This document shows, piece by piece, positions 2,897 to 63,173 of a DNA stretch of 64,000 nt. A program made the position numbers and the translations under genes. Positions within the stretch are counted from its first letter, which is position 1. Each line of letters opens with the position of its first letter. Below the pieces are notes generated by a model. It did not search any database and was not told the DNA's origin. It saw nothing but the letters and a program-made list of their open reading frames with translations. The DNA is from Trueperaceae bacterium. GTDB taxonomy: Bacteria; Deinococcota; Deinococci; Deinococcales; Trueperaceae. The stretch spans positions 4,448,001 through 4,512,000 of the forward strand of contig OZ243927.1 in assembly GCA_965213925.1 (NCBI GenBank), in the 5' to 3' direction.

Positions 2897-4341
2897 GCAG
2901 TTTTCCCAACGGCGCGCTTTGAGCGCTCGAACTCGTACGACGACAGCGTCAAACATAAGAAAAACCAGATGACCACGCCCATCACGCCGACCCAGGCGTT
3001 GCCGAAGGCGACCTGGCTGAGCCCCGCCACCGCGACGCTCAAGCAGGTCGTGCCGAACGCGCCCGAGCGCCTGAGGCGCGCCAGCGCGAGCGCGAAGAGC
3101 CAGCCGACGCCGCCCGCGTAGTAGAGCGTCCCGAGCGCGCCGAAGGCGTACGGCACCGCGATGACGCCGCTGTCTAGGTTGACCACGCCGCCCCGCGCGT
3201 TTAAGTCGGCGGCGACGCCCGTACTCCCCAGCCCCAGACCGAGCGGATGCCGGACGAGGAACGACGCCATGTCGGTATAGAGCGTCAGGCGGGCGCGGTA
3301 ACTCACGTCGCCCTGAACGTTGTCGAGCGACTCGAAGCGCGTGTTGACCGACTCGGCGATAGGTCCGAAGCGTAAAAGGGGCAGCGCCGCGACGCCGACC
3401 GCGACCAAGGTCAAGGCTAAGCGCGTGCGCTCGCGCGCCGGCAATTGCGCGGCGAGGACGAGCAGACCCACGACTAGCCCGCCCCAAGCGGAGCGCACCA
3501 GCGAGAGCATAAAGCTCGCGAAGCCGACCGCAGCCGCCCCCCAGCGGAGCACGCCGGGCGTGCGCAAGAGCAGCAGCAGCCCCGCCAGCATCACCACGGC
3601 GAACGGTCCCGGCGAGTTGAGCGTGCTGAAGACGCGCACCTCGAAGGGCTCGGGCGACCCGATGGAGCCCATGTCGGACTGGACCATCCAGTAGCTGTCC
3701 CACGCAGGCATGACCAGAAATTGGTAGAGCCCGTAAAGCCCCATGACCAGCACACCCCAGATGAAGGTGCGCTGGACCACGCGCCGCTGCGCCTCAAAGT
3801 GGTGCGGCGTAACGAGCAAGTACGCGCCTAAAACCACGGGCGCGAGCCAGTTGAGCAGGTCGAAGGTTGCGCCGAACACGCTGCCGAGCAGAACGCCGAT
3901 CCCGTAGCCGTACATGAGCCCCAGCAAGACGAGCGCGAAGGGCAGCCGGTAGCGCGGCGCGAAGCGGTGCAGGTTGAAAAATACCGGGAACGCCGCTAAG
4001 CACGAGACCAGAAAGGGCGCGACCATGACCAGGCTCGCCTCGGTGTAGCCCGTCTGGTTATCCACTAGGCGGCGCACCTCGGGGGTCAAGAACCAGAGCC
4101 ACCAGGTGTAGCCTAGGTAGCCCGCCGGACGCTGCCAGAGCCAGAGCGCGCCGACGCCCGTCGCCAGCACCGGGAACGCGAGTTGTAAAACGCTCGAGCC
4201 GCCCCCAACGACACCCAGCGCCGTAACGCCCACGAGCCCGATAAGGGACGCTATGGGCAGAGCCTCCAAATACACGTTACCGCCGCGACCACGCCCTGCG
4301 GGGGACCCGCCTTCGGCTCGAGCCCGGTACGCGCGTATCAC
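2893..4341 (-). CDS. Wzy / O-antigen-ligase-like polysaccharide polymerase
   Basis: Many TM helices. RVFSTLNSP, SLVRSAW and PLGLGLG...NLDSG motifs; EPS operon context. Confidence 0.75.
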   Translation of the reverse strand: MIRAYRARAEGGSPAGRGRGGNVYLEALPIASLIGLVGVTALGVVGGGSSVLQLAFPVLATGVGALWLWQRPAGYLGYTWWLWFLTPEVRRLVDNQTGYTEASLVMVAPFLVSCLAAFPVFFNLHRFAPRYRLPFALVLLGLMYGYGIGVLLGSVFGATFDLLNWLAPVVLGAYLLVTPHHFEAQRRVVQRTFIWGVLVMGLYGLYQFLVMPAWDSYWMVQSDMGSIGSPEPFEVRVFSTLNSPGPFAVVMLAGLLLLLRTPGVLRWGAAAVGFASFMLSLVRSAWGGLVVGLLVLAAQLPARERTRLALTLVAVGVAALPLLRFGPIAESVNTRFESLDNVQGDVSYRARLTLYTDMASFLVRHPLGLGLGSTGVAADLNARGGVVNLDSGVIAVPYAFGALGTLYYAGGVGWLFALALARLRRSGAFGTTCLSVAVAGLSQVAFGNAWVGVMGVVIWFFLCLTLSSYEFERSKRAVGKTA

Positions 4342-7691: not shown

Positions 7692-8903
7692 TTAGAGCGC
7701 CTCGATAAGCGCGACGAACTGTTCGTTCAAAACATCGTTATTGAACTCCCGCTCGACTTTAGCGCGGGCGGCGCGGCTCATATCGCTCAAAGTCTGAGGG
7801 GACGAGAGAAGCTCGAGCAGCCCCCTAGCGAGTGCGTCACTGTCGCGCTCGGGCACTAGATAGCCCGACACGCTATGTTCGATGAGTTCGGGGATGCCGC
7901 TATGCCAGGTGCTCAGCACGGGCGTTCCTTGCGCCATCGCCTCCATGATTGCCACTGGGATGCCCTCCATATCGCCGTTTTGCGCCGTGACGCTCGGCGC
8001 GAGCAGCACGTGAGCTTCGGAAAGCGTTTCGAACACGACGCGGCTCGGCTGAGGTCCTAAAAACCTAACGTGTGTCTGCACCCCTAAATGTGTCGTCTCA
8101 GCTTCTAGCACTTTGCGCAACGGACCGTCACCGATGATCGTATAGACGAGGTCGGGGTGCTGTGTAATAACGGCAGGCAGGGAGCGAATCGCGTAGATGA
8201 GCCCCTTTTTCTCTACCGCCCTCGCGACGCTCAAAAGCTTGACGGGCTCTCTCAGCGGCGTAGGATTAAAGGCGATCTCCGAACACGCGACGCCCATGTG
8301 GTGCACGCGCATCTTTTCAGACGGGAAGCCTTTCTCCTCGAGCCGCGCTTTCCACAGCTCGTTGACGGTTAGGAACAGGTCGCCCTCCTCCCTAAGCTGA
8401 GCGTAAGCGTCAGGGTGCGCGTCCAAGTAGGCGGAAACGTCAACCCCGTGAAAGATAGTAACGATTTTTCCAGAGAGTGCCCCGGCACCCTTGAGCGCCG
8501 CCGCCTCAGCGCCGTTGTAGCCGAAGTGACAGCAGACTACGTCGAAGGGCGGCTTCTGATTGAGAAAGGTCACACCAGCGGCAAAGAGCCGCGCGCTCCA
8601 GCGTCCTCTCAGGTAATCTCGAGGGCGCAGCACGCTCAAGTAAGCGGGGATGTTCGCGGGGTGGCGCACACACGACCTCAACATAAGCGCCGCCACGCTG
8701 AAGAGTCGCTCGAGCTTACGGCGCTCACCGGGCAGATAGAGGACCCTCACCCGCTCCGCCACCGGCACGTTGGCGCTAGGGTCCGCGCTAGGTTGCGCAA
8801 CCACGCTCACCTCGTGCCCAGCTTGGGCGAGCGCCTCGATCTGGCGGTAGACAAACGTCAAAGAGGTCAAGGGAAACTCCCTCAGCACGAACGCTATCTT
8901 CAC
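7692..8903 (-). CDS. GT4 glycosyltransferase, WcaL-like
   Basis: CHFG, FHGVD, EKKG, SVTAQNGDMEGIPVAIMEAMA motifs. Confidence 0.9.
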   Translation of the reverse strand: MKIAFVLREFPLTSLTFVYRQIEALAQAGHEVSVVAQPSADPSANVPVAERVRVLYLPGERRKLERLFSVAALMLRSCVRHPANIPAYLSVLRPRDYLRGRWSARLFAAGVTFLNQKPPFDVVCCHFGYNGAEAAALKGAGALSGKIVTIFHGVDVSAYLDAHPDAYAQLREEGDLFLTVNELWKARLEEKGFPSEKMRVHHMGVACSEIAFNPTPLREPVKLLSVARAVEKKGLIYAIRSLPAVITQHPDLVYTIIGDGPLRKVLEAETTHLGVQTHVRFLGPQPSRVVFETLSEAHVLLAPSVTAQNGDMEGIPVAIMEAMAQGTPVLSTWHSGIPELIEHSVSGYLVPERDSDALARGLLELLSSPQTLSDMSRAARAKVEREFNNDVLNEQFVALIEAL

Positions 8904-55735: not shown

Positions 55736-56709
55736 GCGGCTTCACCCGCGCTCTCCGCTCGAGCTTGCCGCGCCTTTGCGCTCCGCCTTTGAGCTTGGAA
55801 CACGCCGAAGCCTACCGCTAAGAGGATAAAAAGCCCATGTAAGGTCTGCTCCCAAAAGGCGCTGATTTCCAGAAATACGAGCACCGTTCCGGTAATACCG
55901 ACGAGAAGCGAGCCGAGCGCTACGCCCAAAACCGTCCCCGAGCCGCCAAAGATGTGCACGCCGCCCACGACTACGGCGGTGATCACCAGAAACTCGAAGC
56001 CCGTGCCGATGTTCGACTGGATGGTCGAAAAGCGCGGCGCGAAGACCATCGCGGCGACGCCGACCAACGCGCCGTTGACGGTGAACGCGCTCGTGATGAT
56101 GTTTGAGGGGTTCACCCCGGAGAGGCGGGCGGCTTCTTCGCTCGAGCCCACCGCATAGAGCGAACGCCCCCACGCCGTGTTGCGCAGCACGAAACTTCCC
56201 GCCACAAGGACGAGCACCGCCACCCAAATCGGATTCTCAATGCCTAAAACCGAGCCCAAGCCGAGCTGACGGAAGTCGGGCGGCAAGTCGTAGACCCACG
56301 CCCCGCCCGTGACGTAGAGCAAGACGCCCCGGTAGATGCTCAGCGTCCCGAGTGTGACGATAATCGAGTGGATGCCTAGGCGTGTGACGAGCAGTCCGTT
56401 GATGAGCCCCAAGGTCGCGCCGACGCCGCAAGCGATGAGGAAAACAGCGAAGACGGGCACGCCCATCTTGCTGAGCGTCCCCGCAGTGATGGCGCAAATC
56501 GCTAAGATTGAGCCAACGGAGATGTCGGGTTGCCCTGTCAAGATAGCGAGCATCCCGCCTAGCGCGGCGATAGCGACGTAAGAGGTGTTGACTAAGATAT
56601 CCGCTAAGTTGCCCACCGAAAAGAAGTTCGGCGCGAAGATGAGGAGCACGAGCGCGATGACGCCCAGAAAAACAGCGATGGAGACCTCACGCCCTCGGTC
56701 AATGTACAT
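55732..56709 (-). CDS. CUT2 ABC permease
   Basis: PDISVGS, IIVTLGT, YAVGS..AA.LSG, VVVGG..FGG.G. Confidence 0.92.
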   Translation of the reverse strand: MYIDRGREVSIAVFLGVIALVLLIFAPNFFSVGNLADILVNTSYVAIAALGGMLAILTGQPDISVGSILAICAITAGTLSKMGVPVFAVFLIACGVGATLGLINGLLVTRLGIHSIIVTLGTLSIYRGVLLYVTGGAWVYDLPPDFRQLGLGSVLGIENPIWVAVLVLVAGSFVLRNTAWGRSLYAVGSSEEAARLSGVNPSNIITSAFTVNGALVGVAAMVFAPRFSTIQSNIGTGFEFLVITAVVVGGVHIFGGSGTVLGVALGSLLVGITGTVLVFLEISAFWEQTLHGLFILLAVGFGVFQAQRRSAKARQARAESAGEAA

Positions 56710-58264
56710 GGGACGCCTCCTTGTCGTTCTCTTCTTCATTCTGTTGCGCGTCGGGTTCACTACCGGATTGGCTGGACTCCTCAGAAGACAAACCCGTCGC
56801 GTGACGCATGACCTCTTCGGGACCCACGCCCTGCGGCAACTCCGCTACAATATGCCCCTCGCGCATCACCAAAATCCGGTCCGCCATCCCCAAGACTTCG
56901 GGCAAGTCCGAGGAGATGAGCAAAATCCCGACCCCTCGCTGCACTAACTCGTCCACCTGCCGGTGAATCTCACGCTTCGCGCCCACGTCCACCCCTTGCG
57001 TCGGCTCGTCCAAGATAAATACGCGCGGCTCCGAGGCGAGCCACTTGCCGAGCACCACCTTTTGTTGGTTGCCGCCCGAGAGCGACGCGGCGGGCGTGTA
57101 CGCCGAGGGCGTGCGGATGCTCAAGCCTTCGATGAACTCGTTCGCCAACTTCCTTTCGCGCGGCTCGTCCAAGATGCCGTTTTTATGCAAGGAGCGCAGC
57201 ACGGGCAGCGCGACGTTATTTTTAACCGAAAAGGGCAACACAAGCCCCTGCGCCGAGCGGTCTTCGGGCAACAGCGCGACCCCCTTGGCGATGACCTCTT
57301 TAGGTTTGTGCGGGAGCGGTTCTCCGTCTAAGGTGACGCTGCCCTCGTCGTAGGGGTCGATGCCGAAAACCGCCCGCGCGACCTCCGAGCGACCTGAGCC
57401 GACCAAGCCCGCCATGCCGACCACTTCGCCTTCGCGAATCTGGAAAGAGATGTCCTCGAAGACGCCCGTGCGCGTTAGAGAGTTGACCTCGAGCAGCGCC
57501 GCCCCCGCCTCGCGCCGGTTGCGCGGGTAGAGGTCTTTGAGTTCGCGCCCGACCATCTTCTGGATGAGCCAGTCTTGGTCAACCTCTTTGACGGAGCTGT
57601 GACCGACCTTCTCCCCGTCGCGCAAGACCGTTACCGTGTCGGCGATTTCAAAAATCTCCTCCAAACGGTGCGAGATGTAGATGACCGCGACCCCTTGCGA
57701 GCGCAAATCCTTGACGAGCTTAAAGAGCCTTTCGGCGTCGTCCGAGGGTAGCGCGGCAGTCGGCTCGTCCATGATGATGACGCGGGCTTGGCGCAAGAGG
57801 GCGCGAGCGATTTCGGCGAGTTTCGTCTGAGCGCGGCTCAAGTCGCCCGCCCTGGCTTTGAGGTCTAAGTCGATGGCGAGGTCGCCAAAGACCTCTTCCG
57901 CCTTGCGTGCCATCTCCTGCCAGTCGAGCAGCCCGAAGCGTTTTTTAATCTGATGTCCGATGAAGAGGTTCTCGAGAACAGACAAATCCGGGTAGAGGCT
58001 GCCCTCTTGGTAAATCGTCGCGACGCCCAAGTCCTGCGCCTGGCGCGGCTCGCTCAGCGTGACCTCTTCTCCGTTCAGTACAATCTTACCCGAGTTGGGC
58101 TGATGTGCGCCCGAGAGGATTTTGATGAGCGTCGATTTGCCCGCGCCGTTCTCGCCCACAATGGCATGTACTTCGCCCTTTTGCAGCGTGAAGTCCACAC
58201 CCTCTAACGCCTGCACGCCGCCGAAGCGCTTGCCGATACCGCGCATGGTGAGCAGGTCAGCCAT
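56699..58264 (-). CDS. CUT2 ABC ATP-binding protein (two domains)
   Basis: GENGAGKS, DEPTA, LSGGNQQKV, DEPTQGVDVGAK. Confidence 0.95.
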   Translation of the reverse strand: MADLLTMRGIGKRFGGVQALEGVDFTLQKGEVHAIVGENGAGKSTLIKILSGAHQPNSGKIVLNGEEVTLSEPRQAQDLGVATIYQEGSLYPDLSVLENLFIGHQIKKRFGLLDWQEMARKAEEVFGDLAIDLDLKARAGDLSRAQTKLAEIARALLRQARVIIMDEPTAALPSDDAERLFKLVKDLRSQGVAVIYISHRLEEIFEIADTVTVLRDGEKVGHSSVKEVDQDWLIQKMVGRELKDLYPRNRREAGAALLEVNSLTRTGVFEDISFQIREGEVVGMAGLVGSGRSEVARAVFGIDPYDEGSVTLDGEPLPHKPKEVIAKGVALLPEDRSAQGLVLPFSVKNNVALPVLRSLHKNGILDEPRERKLANEFIEGLSIRTPSAYTPAASLSGGNQQKVVLGKWLASEPRVFILDEPTQGVDVGAKREIHRQVDELVQRGVGILLISSDLPEVLGMADRILVMREGHIVAELPQGVGPEEVMRHATGLSSEESSQSGSEPDAQQNEEENDKEASHVH

Positions 58265-58461
58265 GAATCACTCCGGTCGGACAAATAGGGGCAGCGACGA
58301 CCCGCACCGCACATGGACCGAAAGGAAACCTTGCGTGGTTGTGGCGCGATAAAGCGATACGAGACCCCTTTCAAAAGGCTTCCGCCCGCACGTGACTTCT
58401 AAACCTTAGGCTGAGCGCGACGCGCTTATCTGCCTCGCCAGCCATTCAATACTGAGATTCG

Positions 58462-58493
58462 AACAAATTAACACAGAAGTTATCACACGTCAA
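58462..58493 (-). promoter_or_regulatory. Promoter of rhamnose ABC operon
   Basis: TTGACG-17-TAATTT with extended TG; overlapped by TGT(T/G) repeats. Confidence 0.5.
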
Positions 58494-58512
58494 TCGTTGA
58501 GCAGTTGAAAGC

Positions 58513-58610
58513 AATGAGCAATGAGTGAAAGGCTTTAGGCTCATTGCTCACCGTCCGTTCCTGCGGAGATTGCATAACCAGCTTGACTGGATTGCTTTCA
58601 ACTCATTGCT
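58513..58610 (+). repeat. 98-bp repeat, left arm
   Basis: Exact reverse complement of 59434-59531. Confidence 0.95.
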
Positions 58611-58664
58611 ACCCTTCCTGATTCCCTTTTCTCTTCCTAACTTTTCTGGTTTAATACGCCCAAC

Positions 58665-59434
58665 ATGGACACCGACCTCGTACCCGCCGCCCGCCGCGAA
58701 GAGATCATGCGACGCGCGACCTTGGAGCGCGTCATCCGCGTGAAAGACTTGGCTGAGATGTTGAGCGTCCACGAGATGACGATTCGGCGCGACTTAGACA
58801 CGCTCGTCGAGGAGGGGCGCTTGGAGCGGGTGCACGGCGGGGCGCGGCTCAGAAGTCAGGGCGGGCTCGAGGTTCGTACGCGGCTCGAGCGCTCACTAAT
58901 CAAGGCGCAAAAGCGCGAATCGCGCGGGCAGCCGCCGACCTCATCAGCGAGGGCGACACCGTCGCCTTCGACGCGAGCACGACGGCGTTGGAGGTGCAGC
59001 GGCGGCTGCGCCTCACCTCTGGCTTGGCGATTATCACGAGCTTAGACGGCGCGAACACGCTCGCAGGCGCGGGCGTGCCCTTCATGATGATCGGCGGCAG
59101 CTTCCACGCGCCCGCCCGCTCGTTTGTAGGTCGAGGCGTCTGCGCCCAGCTCGCTCGGTTACACCCCGACAAGGTCTTTTTTTCCGCCAAAGGCTTCTCA
59201 TTGCAAGCGGGCTTCACCGACGCCCACCTCCCCGAAGTCGAGGTCAAAGAGTGCCTCATCGCCTCCGCCGGGCTCAAGGTCGCCCTTTTAGACGGTTCCA
59301 AGTTCGGCAAGGAAGCGCTCGGGACGATCGTGGGTATAGAGAGCGTAGACGTGCTGATTACCGATTGCGAGCCGCCGGGAGAGATTGTGGAGAGGCTCGA
59401 GCAGGACGGAGTGCAGCTTATCGTGGCAGAGTAA
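58665..59434 (+). pseudogene. DeoR/GlpR regulator (RhaR-like), frameshifted near 58873
   Basis: HTH VHEMTIRRDL...RVHGGA. Adding one T gives EVSYAAR...KARIARAAADLISEGDTVAFDASTT, continuing to DGSKFG. Confidence 0.85.
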
Positions 59435-59531
59435 GCAATGAGTTGAAAGCAATCCAGTCAAGCTGGTTATGCAATCTCCGCAGGAACGGACGGTGAGCAA
59501 TGAGCCTAAAGCCTTTCACTCATTGCTCATT
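59434..59531 (-). repeat. 98-bp repeat, right arm
   Basis: Exact reverse complement of 58513-58610; its first base is the last base of the deoR TAA. Confidence 0.95.
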
Positions 59532-59648
59532 CTTCATTGCTTCTGAAAAGCAAGTTCTTCCAAACAAGTTTCCCAACCACCCTTGCATCCCTCTGTTCAA
59601 AAATGTTTATTATTGTGCTATCACAGGACGCTGGTACAGGAGGCGAGT

Positions 59649-60812
59649 ATGAACAGGGCGAACATTGTGGCGAGGCTGAAACGTCAGGCAGTCGAGACGC
59701 CCTCATGGGGCTACGGCGACTCGGGCACGCGCTTTAAGACCTTTCCCGCACCGGGGGCGGCGCAAACCGTCTGGCAGAAGGTCGCGGACGCGGGCTTTGT
59801 GCACCGTATGACGGGGGCGGCACCTTCGGTGGCGCTCCACATTCCCTGGGACAAAGTGGACGATTACGGCGAGTTGCGCGACTACGCGCAGGGCCAGGGC
59901 GTGCGGCTCGGCGCGATCAACCCGAATACCTTTCAGGACGACGCCTACAAGCTCGGCTCGCTCTGCCACCCGAAAGAAGAGGTGCGGCAGCAGGCGTTGG
60001 AGCACATGTTGGAATGCTGCGACATCATGAGACAAACGGACAGCAAGGTACTAAGCATCTGGCTCGCTGACGGCACGAATTATCCCGGTCAGGATGATTT
60101 GGTACGGCGTAAAGAACACCTCGCAGAAGGGCTCAAGACGGTGCACGACGCGCTACCCAAAGACTCTAAGATGCTCATCGAATATAAGTTCTTTGAGCCC
60201 GCTTTCTACCACACCGACTTAGCCGATTGGGGCACGGCGTACGTCATGAGCCTCAAATGCGGCGACAACGCGCAGGTCTTGGTGGACACCGGGCATCACC
60301 CACTGAGCACCAACATTCCGCACATCGTGAGCTTCCTTTTAAGCGAAAACAAGCTCGGCGGCTTCCACTTCAATAACCGCAACTACGCCGACGACGACCT
60401 CGTCGTGGGAAGCCAAAACCCCTTCGACCTCTTCGACATCTACACCAAAATTGTGCCGTTCGGGGAGCGCGGCGAAGCGGTCGCGTACATGATCGACCAG
60501 AGCCACAATATCGAGCCTAAGTTAGAGGCGATGGTCTTGTCCGTGGTGAACTGTCAGGTCGCGCTCGCCAAAGCGCTTTTGGTGGACTATGACGCGCTGC
60601 GGGACGCGCAGCAGAACGAGGATGTGCTGGGCGCTCACCGCATTCTGATGGACGCCTTTCAGAGCGATGTGCGCCCACTACTCCAAGAGGTCCGCACCGA
60701 GATGGGCGCACCCGCTGACCCCTTGACGGCGGTGCGCGAGGACGAGTATCCGAAGCGAGTGATTGAGGAAAGAGGTACAGGGAGCGGGGGTGGCGGCTAT
60801 CCGACGGCGTAG
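59649..60812 (+). CDS. rhaI: L-rhamnose isomerase (RhaI type)
   Basis: ETPSWGYGDSGTRF, LHIPWD, WLADGTNYPGQ, EYKFFEP.FY, GGFHFN, DDDL, MIDQSHN. Confidence 0.93.
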   Translation: MNRANIVARLKRQAVETPSWGYGDSGTRFKTFPAPGAAQTVWQKVADAGFVHRMTGAAPSVALHIPWDKVDDYGELRDYAQGQGVRLGAINPNTFQDDAYKLGSLCHPKEEVRQQALEHMLECCDIMRQTDSKVLSIWLADGTNYPGQDDLVRRKEHLAEGLKTVHDALPKDSKMLIEYKFFEPAFYHTDLADWGTAYVMSLKCGDNAQVLVDTGHHPLSTNIPHIVSFLLSENKLGGFHFNNRNYADDDLVVGSQNPFDLFDIYTKIVPFGERGEAVAYMIDQSHNIEPKLEAMVLSVVNCQVALAKALLVDYDALRDAQQNEDVLGAHRILMDAFQSDVRPLLQEVRTEMGAPADPLTAVREDEYPKRVIEERGTGSGGGGYPTA

Positions 60813-60983: not shown

Positions 60984-63173
60984 ATGAGCCAAACCATCCC
61001 CGACTTCCAACACGTCACTTACGGCTGGGACGACGCTCACGCCGATACGCTCGACCCAGTGGAGCGCCTCGTCTACCGCTCGAACCTTTTAGGACAAGAC
61101 CAGCGCATCACCAATACGGGCGGCGGCAACACCAGCAGTAAGCTGACGATGAGCGACCCCCTAACAGATGAAGAGGTCCAAGTTTTATGGGTTAAAGGCT
61201 CGGGCGGCGACCTGCGCACCGCTAAGCGCGAAAACTTCGCCTCGCTCTACATGGACAAGCTGATGCGGCTTAGGGATATTTACACTTCGGCGGAGAATAA
61301 GGGCGTTAAAACACCGATCGAGGATGAGATGGTGGCGATGTATCCGCATACGACCTACAACCTCAACTCGAGAGCCAGTTCAATCGACACCCCTCTTCAC
61401 GCCTTCATCCCGCGCAAGCACGTGGACCATACGCATCCTATCGCCGTTATCGCCATCGCCGCCTCGGAAGACGGGGAAGCCTTGACCCGCGAAATCTACG
61501 GCGACGAAATTGGCTGGATTCCTTGGCAGCGCCCCGGTTTCGACTTGGGCGTGGCGATGCAGGAGAAGCTCGAGCAAAACCCCAATCTCAAAGGTCTGGT
61601 GATGGGGCAGCACGGGCTCATCAACTGGGCGGACGACGACAAGGAATGTTATGAGCGGTCGCTCGAGCTCATCGAAAAAGCGGCGCGGTTTACCGAGTCT
61701 AAGACGAGTGACGAGCCTTTCGGCGGCGCGAAAGTTCAACCGTTGGACGAAACCGAAAGAAACGACCTTTTAGCGGAAGTCCTGCCTAAGCTGCGCGGCA
61801 TGGTCTCGCAGGAGCGCAAGTTCATCGGGACGGTGGAGGCTCGGGAGGAGGTCGTGCAGTTCGTGAGCAGCGCCGACGCGCCGCGTCTAGCCGAGTTGGG
61901 GACTTCGTGCCCTGACCACTTCTTGCGGACGAAGATAAAGCCTTTGTATGTGGATTGGAACCCTCGAGAGGGCGGCGCAGAGGATTTAGTAGCGGCGCTA
62001 GAACGCGGCTTAGCGCAGTACCGCAAAGACTACGCCGAGTATTACGAAACGTGTAAACACCCTGACTCGCCCGCCATGCGCGACCCCAACCCCACCGTCG
62101 TCCTCATCCCCGGCGTCGGTCTCATCGCGTGGGGCAAAAACAAGAGCGAGTCGCGGGTCACGGCGGAGTTCTATACCTCCGCCATCGGCGTGATGCGCGG
62201 GGCGGAAGCGGTGTCGCGTTACCGCTCGCTGCCACAGCAAGAAGCCTTCGACATCGAGTATTGGGCGCTCGAGGAGGCGAAGCTCCAGCGGATGCCCCCG
62301 GAGAAGGCGTTTGCAAGAGAGGTCGTCGTCGTCGTGGGTGCGGGCAGCGGCATCGGCGGCGCAGTGGCGGCGCGGGTAGCGCAAGAGGGGGCGCACGTCG
62401 TCTGTGCGGACTTGGACGCGGCGGCAGCAGAAGCTACAGCGGATGCACTGATAGAAACGCATGGGCAAGGCATCGGCGTGGCGGGGACGGGGGTCTCGAG
62501 CTGTGGTCCCGCCCTCGCTGCTGAGGTGGATATTACGGCGCGTTCTAACGTTCAAGCTATGCTCAGTAAGGTCGTTCTCGCCTACGGCGGACTCGACCAC
62601 CTCATCGTCACGGCGGGCGTCTTCTTTTCGCCGGACGCCTCGGGAGGTCTCTCCGAAGAGAGGTGGCGCACCACCTTTGACGTGAACGTCATCGGCAGCC
62701 ACCTCGCCTCTAACGAAGCGCGGCGCATCTGGGACGCGCAAGGATTGAAAGGCTCACTTGTTCTGACCACTAGCGTCAACGGCGTCGTACCGAAAACGGG
62801 CTCGCTCGCTTACGACACCTCCAAAGCAGCGGCAAATCATCTCGTGCGCGAACTTGCGGTTGAACTCGCGCCCAAGGTCCGCGTGAACGCTCTTGCGCCC
62901 GCCACCGTCGTTGAAGGGAGCAGCATGTTTCCCCGCGAAAGGGTGGAAAGTTCGCTCACTAAATACAGTGTAGATTTCTCAGAAGAGGAGGATACCGGAG
63001 CGTTACGCGACAAACTCGCCGCCTTCTACGCCGAGCGCACGCTCACCAAAGCGCCGATCACGCTCGCCGACCAAGCGGAAGTCGCCTATCTCTTATGTAC
63101 CGGCGCGTTCGCTAAAACGACGGGGCACATCTTCAGCGTGGACGGGGGTTTGACGGAGGCATTTCTGCGCTAA
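60984..63173 (+). CDS. Bifunctional rhamnulose-1-phosphate aldolase / short-chain dehydrogenase (RhaEW-like)
   Basis: GGGNTS.K, SIDTPLH, GTSCPDHFLRTK, IEYWALEEAKL; SDR GAGSGIG and YDTSK. Confidence 0.93.
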   Translation: MSQTIPDFQHVTYGWDDAHADTLDPVERLVYRSNLLGQDQRITNTGGGNTSSKLTMSDPLTDEEVQVLWVKGSGGDLRTAKRENFASLYMDKLMRLRDIYTSAENKGVKTPIEDEMVAMYPHTTYNLNSRASSIDTPLHAFIPRKHVDHTHPIAVIAIAASEDGEALTREIYGDEIGWIPWQRPGFDLGVAMQEKLEQNPNLKGLVMGQHGLINWADDDKECYERSLELIEKAARFTESKTSDEPFGGAKVQPLDETERNDLLAEVLPKLRGMVSQERKFIGTVEAREEVVQFVSSADAPRLAELGTSCPDHFLRTKIKPLYVDWNPREGGAEDLVAALERGLAQYRKDYAEYYETCKHPDSPAMRDPNPTVVLIPGVGLIAWGKNKSESRVTAEFYTSAIGVMRGAEAVSRYRSLPQQEAFDIEYWALEEAKLQRMPPEKAFAREVVVVVGAGSGIGGAVAARVAQEGAHVVCADLDAAAAEATADALIETHGQGIGVAGTGVSSCGPALAAEVDITARSNVQAMLSKVVLAYGGLDHLIVTAGVFFSPDASGGLSEERWRTTFDVNVIGSHLASNEARRIWDAQGLKGSLVLTTSVNGVVPKTGSLAYDTSKAAANHLVRELAVELAPKVRVNALAPATVVEGSSMFPRERVESSLTKYSVDFSEEEDTGALRDKLAAFYAERTLTKAPITLADQAEVAYLLCTGAFAKTTGHIFSVDGGLTEAFLR

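Follow-up and report, generated by a model that had tools for sequence, protein, structure and literature searches.

In the genome of this Trueperaceae bacterium, the deoR regulator gene of a rhamnose locus stands between the two arms of a perfect inverted repeat. We consider, with a probability of about 0.62, that these arms are two old repeat copies which inserted around an ancestral regulator gene and were recently homogenised by local gene conversion. For the window (the whole stretch of 64,000 nucleotides that was analysed, C1:4448001-4512000), the first-pass annotation had proposed three readings of this arrangement, namely a regulator that can be flipped, a MITE composite that delivered the gene and a recent gene conversion. 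It is the last one that the evidence favours: the arms are outliers in their family, the identical patch has a visible outer edge and a second perfect pair exists in the same genome. Nothing in our results shows a dedicated gene switch or a mobile cassette. The features of the locus are listed below; G002 is a congener (84% identity).

56699..58264, minus strand: ATPase of a sugar ABC transporter, first gene of the divergent transporter operon, with the permeases and a RhaS-like binding protein further left.
About 58450..58512 (to 58527 at the widest), no strand assigned: block conserved with G002 (78% in the alignment) beside the left arm.
58499..58610, plus strand: left repeat copy, with its identical part at 58513-58610 and about 14 nt of outer family sequence of subtype GTTGAAAGC.
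58611..58664, plus strand: deoR upstream region of 54 nt, whose last 40 nt (58625-58664) are conserved with G002.
58665..59434, plus strand: deoR, a DeoR-family regulator, RhaR-like by context, broken into two pieces in the assembly, where 1 nt is lacking at about 58874.
59434..59545, minus strand: right repeat copy, with its identical part at 59434-59531 and about 14 nt of outer family sequence of another subtype, GCAATGAAG.
59577..59648, plus strand: block conserved with G002 (84% in the alignment) beside the right arm.
59649..60812, plus strand: rhaI, L-rhamnose isomerase (TIGR02635, 574 bits, cut-off 531).
60984..63173, plus strand: bifunctional rhamnulose-1-phosphate aldolase/short-chain dehydrogenase of the RhaEW/RhaD type (NF006189, 1078 bits, cut-off 634; compare the available part of PMC3870299).

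The two arms measure 98 nt, are 100% complementary and lie 823 nt apart; a repeat search and a direct string comparison both bore out the exact reverse complementarity of 58513-58610 and 59434-59531 reported by the first-pass annotation. Inspection of the sequence also located the GCAATGA/TCATTGC heptamers that had been placed at the arm ends, and the right arm indeed starts on the last base of the deoR TAA codon (59432-59434). On the outer side the similarity ends at once (8/30 nt match in the flanks, which is the chance level), and the inner flanks are at chance level as well (9/30 nt). The perfect arms enclose the presumed deoR promoter, the gene and its stop, and the unit that an inversion would turn is 921 bp long. 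Among the 23 exact inverted repeats of at least 35 nt and at most 20 kb apart in the whole genome, this pair ranks second by length. The left copy folds as single-stranded DNA at -23.3 kcal/mol (z -4.4) and the right copy as RNA at -42.1 kcal/mol (z -2.6).

Each arm is a member of a dispersed family. Counting its copies in the genome, as had been suggested, gave 83 BLAST HSPs and 16 near-full copies, and no other copy exceeds about 87% identity to the arms, the closest one being at 87.4%. An alignment of the 16 copies shows a modular element, in which a variable array of GCAAYGA heptamers at one end is followed by a hairpin module (GAGCAATGAG-loop-CTCATTGCTC), a block CACCGTTCGTTCC, a variable core and a conserved 3' module (ACCAGCTYGACTGGATTGCTTTCAACTCATTGCT); the termini are inverted (AGCAATGAG...CTCATTGCT). 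The element shares several attributes with MITEs, being about 100 nt long, non-coding, multi-copy and bounded by terminal inverted repeats. None of the 16 near-full copies falls in a long ORF; where open frames cross a copy, they measure 89 aa at most. The main contig (C1) holds 56 hairpin modules of the form GAGCAAYGAG-N8-24-CTCRTTGCTC, palindromic units in the 20-40 nt range of REP/REPIN sequences, and GAGCAATGAG occurs 190 times where 7.8 occurrences are expected. Modules are common to other elements too; for instance, the 93-nt repeat at C1:1857244 has 29 nt in common with the element.

Of 31 genomes searched, only the three that belong to the genus gave arm-like matches. G002 shares the copy at C1:523759, which lies at the orthologous site within a single uninterrupted 80% alignment. 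Because of this orthologous copy, and because the copies are on average only 68% alike, the family is to be regarded as old. A search for the RAYT gene (Y1_Tnp, PF01797) gave no match in the window's genome (G000) and detected matches in 6 of the 14 genomes taken as controls. Neither a GTAG nor a CGTC tag is conserved in the family consensus. As for a parent IS, no IS-sized pair of ends was seen in this genome (96.9% complete): the near-full BLAST matches are no longer than 123 nt, and each remaining HSP covers less of the arm. No target-site duplication is visible at the arm ends or in the 16-copy alignment, where the heptamer array makes the limits of the element indistinct. Against Rfam, the only match was a chance-level one to a miRNA (21.7 bits, gathering score 75). 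Another element of this genome, 115 nt long (for example at C1:2216301-2216415), occurs in 28 copies that cover 80% or more of its length, the eight that were listed being 99-100% identical; it is apparently a young and active repeat, unlike the old family found at deoR.

Within its family, the deoR-flanking pair stands apart. The two arms are 100% identical; the 16 near-full copies form 120 pairs, and the remaining 119 average 67.7% and reach 86.2% at most. In addition, when 46 neighbouring repeat pairs of any family were ranked, this pair had the largest identity excess (100% versus 87.4% for the best distant copy). The partners thus greatly exceed the other family members in likeness, as is expected of a conversion tract. 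We then observed that over the 14 nt beyond the outer identity edge the arms match each other at 5/14 positions only. The left outer 14 nt match the copy at C1:4247363 at 12/14 positions and the copies at 2801265 and 1319789 at 10/14, and the right outer 14 nt match the copies at C1:994952 and C1:749746 at 10/14; a score of at least 10/14 arises in 0.06% of random genomic 14-mers. The outer 14 nt of the two arms are therefore different family subtypes. Since family sequence of differing subtypes continues past both outer edges, the identity is an internal patch and not the result of two whole fresh insertions. On the outer side, identity ends inside homologous but diverged sequence, which is again what a conversion tract looks like. 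On the inner side it reaches the very end of the element, and a patch edge can be seen only on the outer side, where the family sequence is a variable heptamer array in which the true element end is hard to define.

A second inverted pair of the same super-family was found at C1:1857244-1857336 and C1:1863987-1864079, perfect over 93 nt and 6.65 kb apart. Its 93-nt core sits within a 160-nt alignment of 90.6% identity, with diverged family sequence on both sides. This pair bears the signature of a conversion patch and supports conversion at deoR. The genes between its copies are ordinary ones, which encode a BrxC-like protein, a transporter, a glycogen-debranching-type enzyme, a DUF6794 protein, an FGase and a LuxR-type regulator. 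Comparing the orientation of this 6.65-kb segment with congeners was uninformative: G001 and G002 are rearranged, with a breakpoint near positions 3400-3520 of the extracted locus L124, in which the repeats occupy 1045-1137 and 7788-7880. Around C1:1856200-1865200, G000 shares 97-98% identity with one contig of the congener assembly (G002:C1:44470-53087), whereas on the G002 chromosome the corresponding pieces are scattered and have 79-88% identity; the close likeness of the contig could come from a recent transfer, or from a contig of a G000-like strain binned into G002.

Neighbouring copies are not homogenised in general. Of 46 repeat pairs situated within 10 kb and having five or more family copies at a distance, 4 had the neighbour as their best match, for 3.3 expected by chance. 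Conversion at deoR must therefore have been a rare single event. The arm family holds no further young pair, the maximum among the other 119 pairs being 86.2%. A point against conversion is that copies as far apart as the remaining family members (about 70-85% alike), if this was their state before the event, would have recombined inefficiently over about 100 nt and against mismatch repair, in view of the available part of PMC5485169.

The regulator gene itself has relatives in comparable positions. In the congener G002 the order is the same, with the ABC gene on the minus strand and deoR and rhaI on the plus strand. In three genomes from other families of the order (G023, G026 and G030), deoR lies directly upstream of rhaI on the same strand, and in G023 the ABC gene is divergent too. 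These four are all the genomes besides G000, among the 31 searched, with deoR and rhaI matches on one contig; in the remaining searched genomes the deoR part gave no match at the DNA level. The orientation comparison proposed by the first-pass annotation thus gave the same orientation as here in 4/4 informative relatives, and by this comparison the position and orientation of deoR are ancestral. A genome contig scan based on RhaI found only distant relatives of at most 65% identity and no close kin, and in a JGI metagenome scan with the DeoR C-domain the best relative was 64% identical and no same-species locus was found.

Neither of the two deoR spacers of G002 contains a copy of the element that flanks deoR here. 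Both hold members of another repeat family of about 300 nt, in direct orientation and 74-81% alike (1791-2384 and 3189-3712 of G002:C2:1055500-1061500), and since these belong to a different family, the spacers around deoR can be viewed as recurrent landing sites for repeats. In G002, a further 98-nt repeat begins about 8 nt past the deoR stop codon. The idea that a MITE composite delivered deoR did not survive this comparison: four relatives have the gene at the same site in the same orientation, G002 has it without the element, the interior is single-copy in G000, and the outer flanks show neither a direct repeat nor a target-site duplication around the whole cassette. Judging from these alignments, deoR was not brought by the repeats.

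The first-pass annotation had described the interior (58611-59433) as holding nothing but deoR and 54 nt of upstream sequence. The upstream stretch is confirmed, with the ATG at 58665, but the gene is not intact as assembled: it consists of two overlapping ORFs, 58665-59045 with the HTH_DeoR domain (PF08220) and 58988-59434 with the DeoRC domain (PF00455). Its ortholog in G002 is a single intact ORF, of which the 257-aa DeoR reading from an internal ATG was scanned, and the DNA alignment with G002 puts the 1-nt gap of the window at about 58874. Among the short-read contigs of the public run X1, one (record 7, 58822-59460; depth 5.57 of 5.57) shows an additional C after position 58873. Because this contig carries the missing base exactly at the gap, the frameshift is most likely an assembly error or a minority variant. 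It should not be taken for a pseudogene.

The product is predicted by context to be a RhaR-like rhamnose regulator: both domains of a DeoR-family RhaR are found, and the neighbours RhaI and RhaEW score above their cut-offs. This gene set with a DeoR-type RhaR fits the rhamnose regulons of Rodionova et al., in the part of PMC3870299 that is available. Profile matches also agree with the location that had been given, between a divergent sugar ABC operon and rhaI; the binding protein of this operon is RhaS-like, its score of 253 bits lying below the cut-off of 342. With its last 40 nt conserved in G002, the region 58611-58664 is presumably the deoR promoter; a scan for consensus promoters and terminators found nothing at the arms and no promoter in these 54 nt.

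The conserved block on the left is presumed to be the promoter/operator region of the divergent ABC operon, and the block on the right the promoter/operator of rhaI together with its ribosome-binding site. Within these blocks, outside both arms, we observed the motifs TTAACACA/TTATCACA and TTATTGTG/CTATCACA (58468-58487 and 59610-59625), which are candidate operator half-sites of the DeoR regulator. Published sites of DeoR-type RhaR proteins are direct repeats with a 10-11 bp periodicity, in the available part of PMC3870299. An operator role of the arms was considered and rejected, the arms being absent from G002 and the blocks conserved with G002 lying outside them. Since conserved sequence lies outside both arms and, on the inner side of the left arm, resumes at 58625, the arms fill the stretches that are free to vary, which explains why they seem to bracket the gene so precisely.

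We infer the mechanism, its direction and its neutrality as follows. Two family members would have inserted separately into the two spacers that flank the ancestral deoR. A break or gap in one copy would then have been repaired with the inverted neighbour, 0.8 kb away, as the template; this repair may have been initiated at the conserved 3' module (inner side) and the GCAATGA-heptamer/hairpin module (outer side). By such non-reciprocal homologous recombination, 98 nt of one copy would recently have been copied onto the other, and the outcome would be a perfect inverted repeat bracketing promoter, gene and stop. The tight fit would reflect selection that tolerates repeat insertions only outside functional parts. 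The structure would then be a by-product of repair, and its arms could now and then let general recombination turn the 921-bp unit around.

A recent transposition, whether a local hop from one spacer to the other, a duplicative inversion or two insertions from one master copy, is an unlikely alternative to conversion. Perfect identity resembles a fresh copy, the element carries inverted repeats at its termini and adopts a hairpin fold, other families of this genome such as the 115-nt element are young and apparently active, and neighbouring copies are in general not homogenised here. However, fresh copies do not fit an identity that stops about 14 nt before the family-defined outer end, at the point where the arms differ in subtype. 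No other family copy reaches more than about 87% identity to the arms, and no other pair exceeds about 86%. Target-site duplications are lacking at the arms and around the cassette, no longer element with the same ends turned up (the near-full BLAST matches stay within 123 nt, the other HSPs being shorter) and the genome has no RAYT gene. Moreover, a duplicative inversion predicts an inverted deoR, but the observed orientation is the ancestral one.

A functional invertible cassette is clearly more doubtful still. It would suppose that the 921-bp unit flips through RecA or a recombinase acting in trans, which keeps the arms identical and changes the read-through into rhaI or the ABC operon. In its strongest version, to which we attach an equally low probability, the regulator would face the ABC operon instead of rhaI-rhaEW in part of the population, altered read-through and regulator dosage would provide bet-hedging in rhamnose use, and heteroduplex repair would keep the arms identical. 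In its favour, promoter, gene and stop lie precisely between the arms, and the gene would thus survive an inversion intact; the excess of identity (100% versus 87%), by far the largest among the 46 ranked pairs, also speaks for it. Furthermore, 98 nt of perfect inverted homology suffices for general recombination, and occasional inversion by this route is physically plausible. Against a functional switch, however, stands an orientation that is the same in all four informative relatives, and the arms are copies of a generic dispersed repeat that is absent from the congener's locus. With its own presumed promoter inside the unit, deoR itself would be changed little by a flip. The unit is also about 1 kb long, whereas more than 75% of the 10,983 inverton sequences found by PhaseFinder are shorter than 300 nt (core dataset, as given in the available part of PMC11602134).

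No invertase gene is adjacent to the cassette either. The first-pass annotation had stated that the window holds no recombinase gene, and searches with PF00239 and PF00589 agree, neither a serine nor a tyrosine recombinase being found in it. The serine-recombinase profile has two matches in the genome, of which one lies 1.9 Mb away at C1:2620434 and the other, which is broken, 8.5 kb to the right at C1:4516002; the tyrosine-recombinase profile has ten, none of them inside C1:4448001-4512000. A dedicated recombinase for the repeat was found neither beside the cassette nor in the genome searches. The broken resolvase belongs to a mobile-element wreck at C1:4513505-4517800, 1.5-6 kb past the right end of the window, which contains inverted IS1 fragments with 95-nt perfect inverted ends, a DUF4158 piece (Tn3 transposase N-terminal) and an Xre/RES toxin-antitoxin pair. 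This Tn3-type resolvase lacks the first 41 profile positions and is separated from its HTH by a stop.

Least probable of all is an assembly or polishing artefact in which the consensus of one arm overwrote the other: the genome appears metagenome-derived (X1 comprises 5.5 million contigs) and at least one error-like 1-nt gap lies nearby, in deoR, but an X1 unitig (record 4, 58513-58604) shows zero differences from the arm at about twice the depth of the unique flanks (13.8 versus 5.6-10.4), begins exactly at 58513, where two contexts should merge, and is joined by flank unitigs that enter the arms by 17, 27 and 30 nt without mismatch. Three of the four listed arm junctions are reproduced by X1 unitigs (records 1, 7 and 8). 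As the unitigs match the arm in sequence, depth, start and flanks, the reads as well as the assembly support two identical arms; X1 is possibly the sample behind the assembly, so that it checks the consensus and does not stand for an independent population, and its unitigs are built from reads. All three public runs used here consist of k=31 contigs, and X3 contributed none at this locus. Every word below 98 nt is the same before and after an inversion between perfect 98-nt arms, so that such contigs do not discriminate between the orientations. Contig joints such as that from 58526 to 59514 were set aside, since foreign letters separate their two sides and their origin lies in other repeat copies of the metagenome. 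In a strain about 90% identical, one contig skips 58495-58670, possibly an empty left site; its depth is 3 and the intervening letters are not known, so this contig was left out of the argument.

The process proposed here, conversion between inverted repeats, is known, and the locus is a clean example of it; the repeat family is new, an undescribed, genus-specific mosaic in a relative of Deinococcus. A tidy-looking "cassette" can come from ordinary processes, as repeats settle in tolerant spacers and repair sometimes copies neighbours. Two clean conversion patches between copies of about 100 nt bear on how short and how diverged a repair template may be in this radiation-resistant lineage. In practical terms the gain is modest, the locus offering a ready substrate for measuring the rates of spontaneous inversion and conversion.

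Compared with known systems, the locus resembles invertons, in the available text of PMC11602134, by its inverted repeats around a short regulatory segment. It differs from them in that its arms are 98 nt of a generic repeat and not short recombinase sites, no invertase is adjacent, the unit is about 1 kb long with a whole gene, and it is known here in one orientation. Like REP/BIME/REPIN sequences and MITEs, the family has a palindromic hairpin core of about 35 nt and forms an intergenic composite of about 100 nt with inverted ends and many copies. Unlike REP/REPIN sequences, it occurs in a genome without a RAYT (Y1 transposase) gene and its consensus has no GTAG/CGTC tag, as this tag is defined in the accessible part of PMC3733652; unlike MITEs, it shows no target-site duplication and no parent IS was found for it.

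The mosaic small noncoding repeats (SNRs) of Deinococcus radiodurans, with 295 copies of at least nine types according to excerpts of PMC1978522, which gives Makarova et al. 1999 as a reference in connection with them, are similar in build. As far as this text describes them, they are likewise short, intergenic and modular mosaics in dozens of copies to which no mobilising enzyme is assigned. The sharing of a 3' module (ACCAGCTYGACTGGATTGCT) and of a 5' heptamer/hairpin module across elements recalls them too. The arm family, by contrast, was found only in the genus of the window, and the likeness described here concerns build.

RecA-dependent conversion between inversely oriented repeats is established in bacteria for tufA and tufB of Salmonella, as reported in the available part of PMC5485169. 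Those are essential genes of 1.2 kb lying 762 kb apart, whereas the repeats described here are non-coding, 100 nt long and 0.8 kb apart, with no sign of selection for identity and a starting divergence that was probably much higher. Like tufA/tufB, as that text presents them, the deoR-flanking pair would illustrate how non-reciprocal copying between inverted homologues on one chromosome leaves a contiguous identity tract, which stops where homology ends or where the sequence has diverged.
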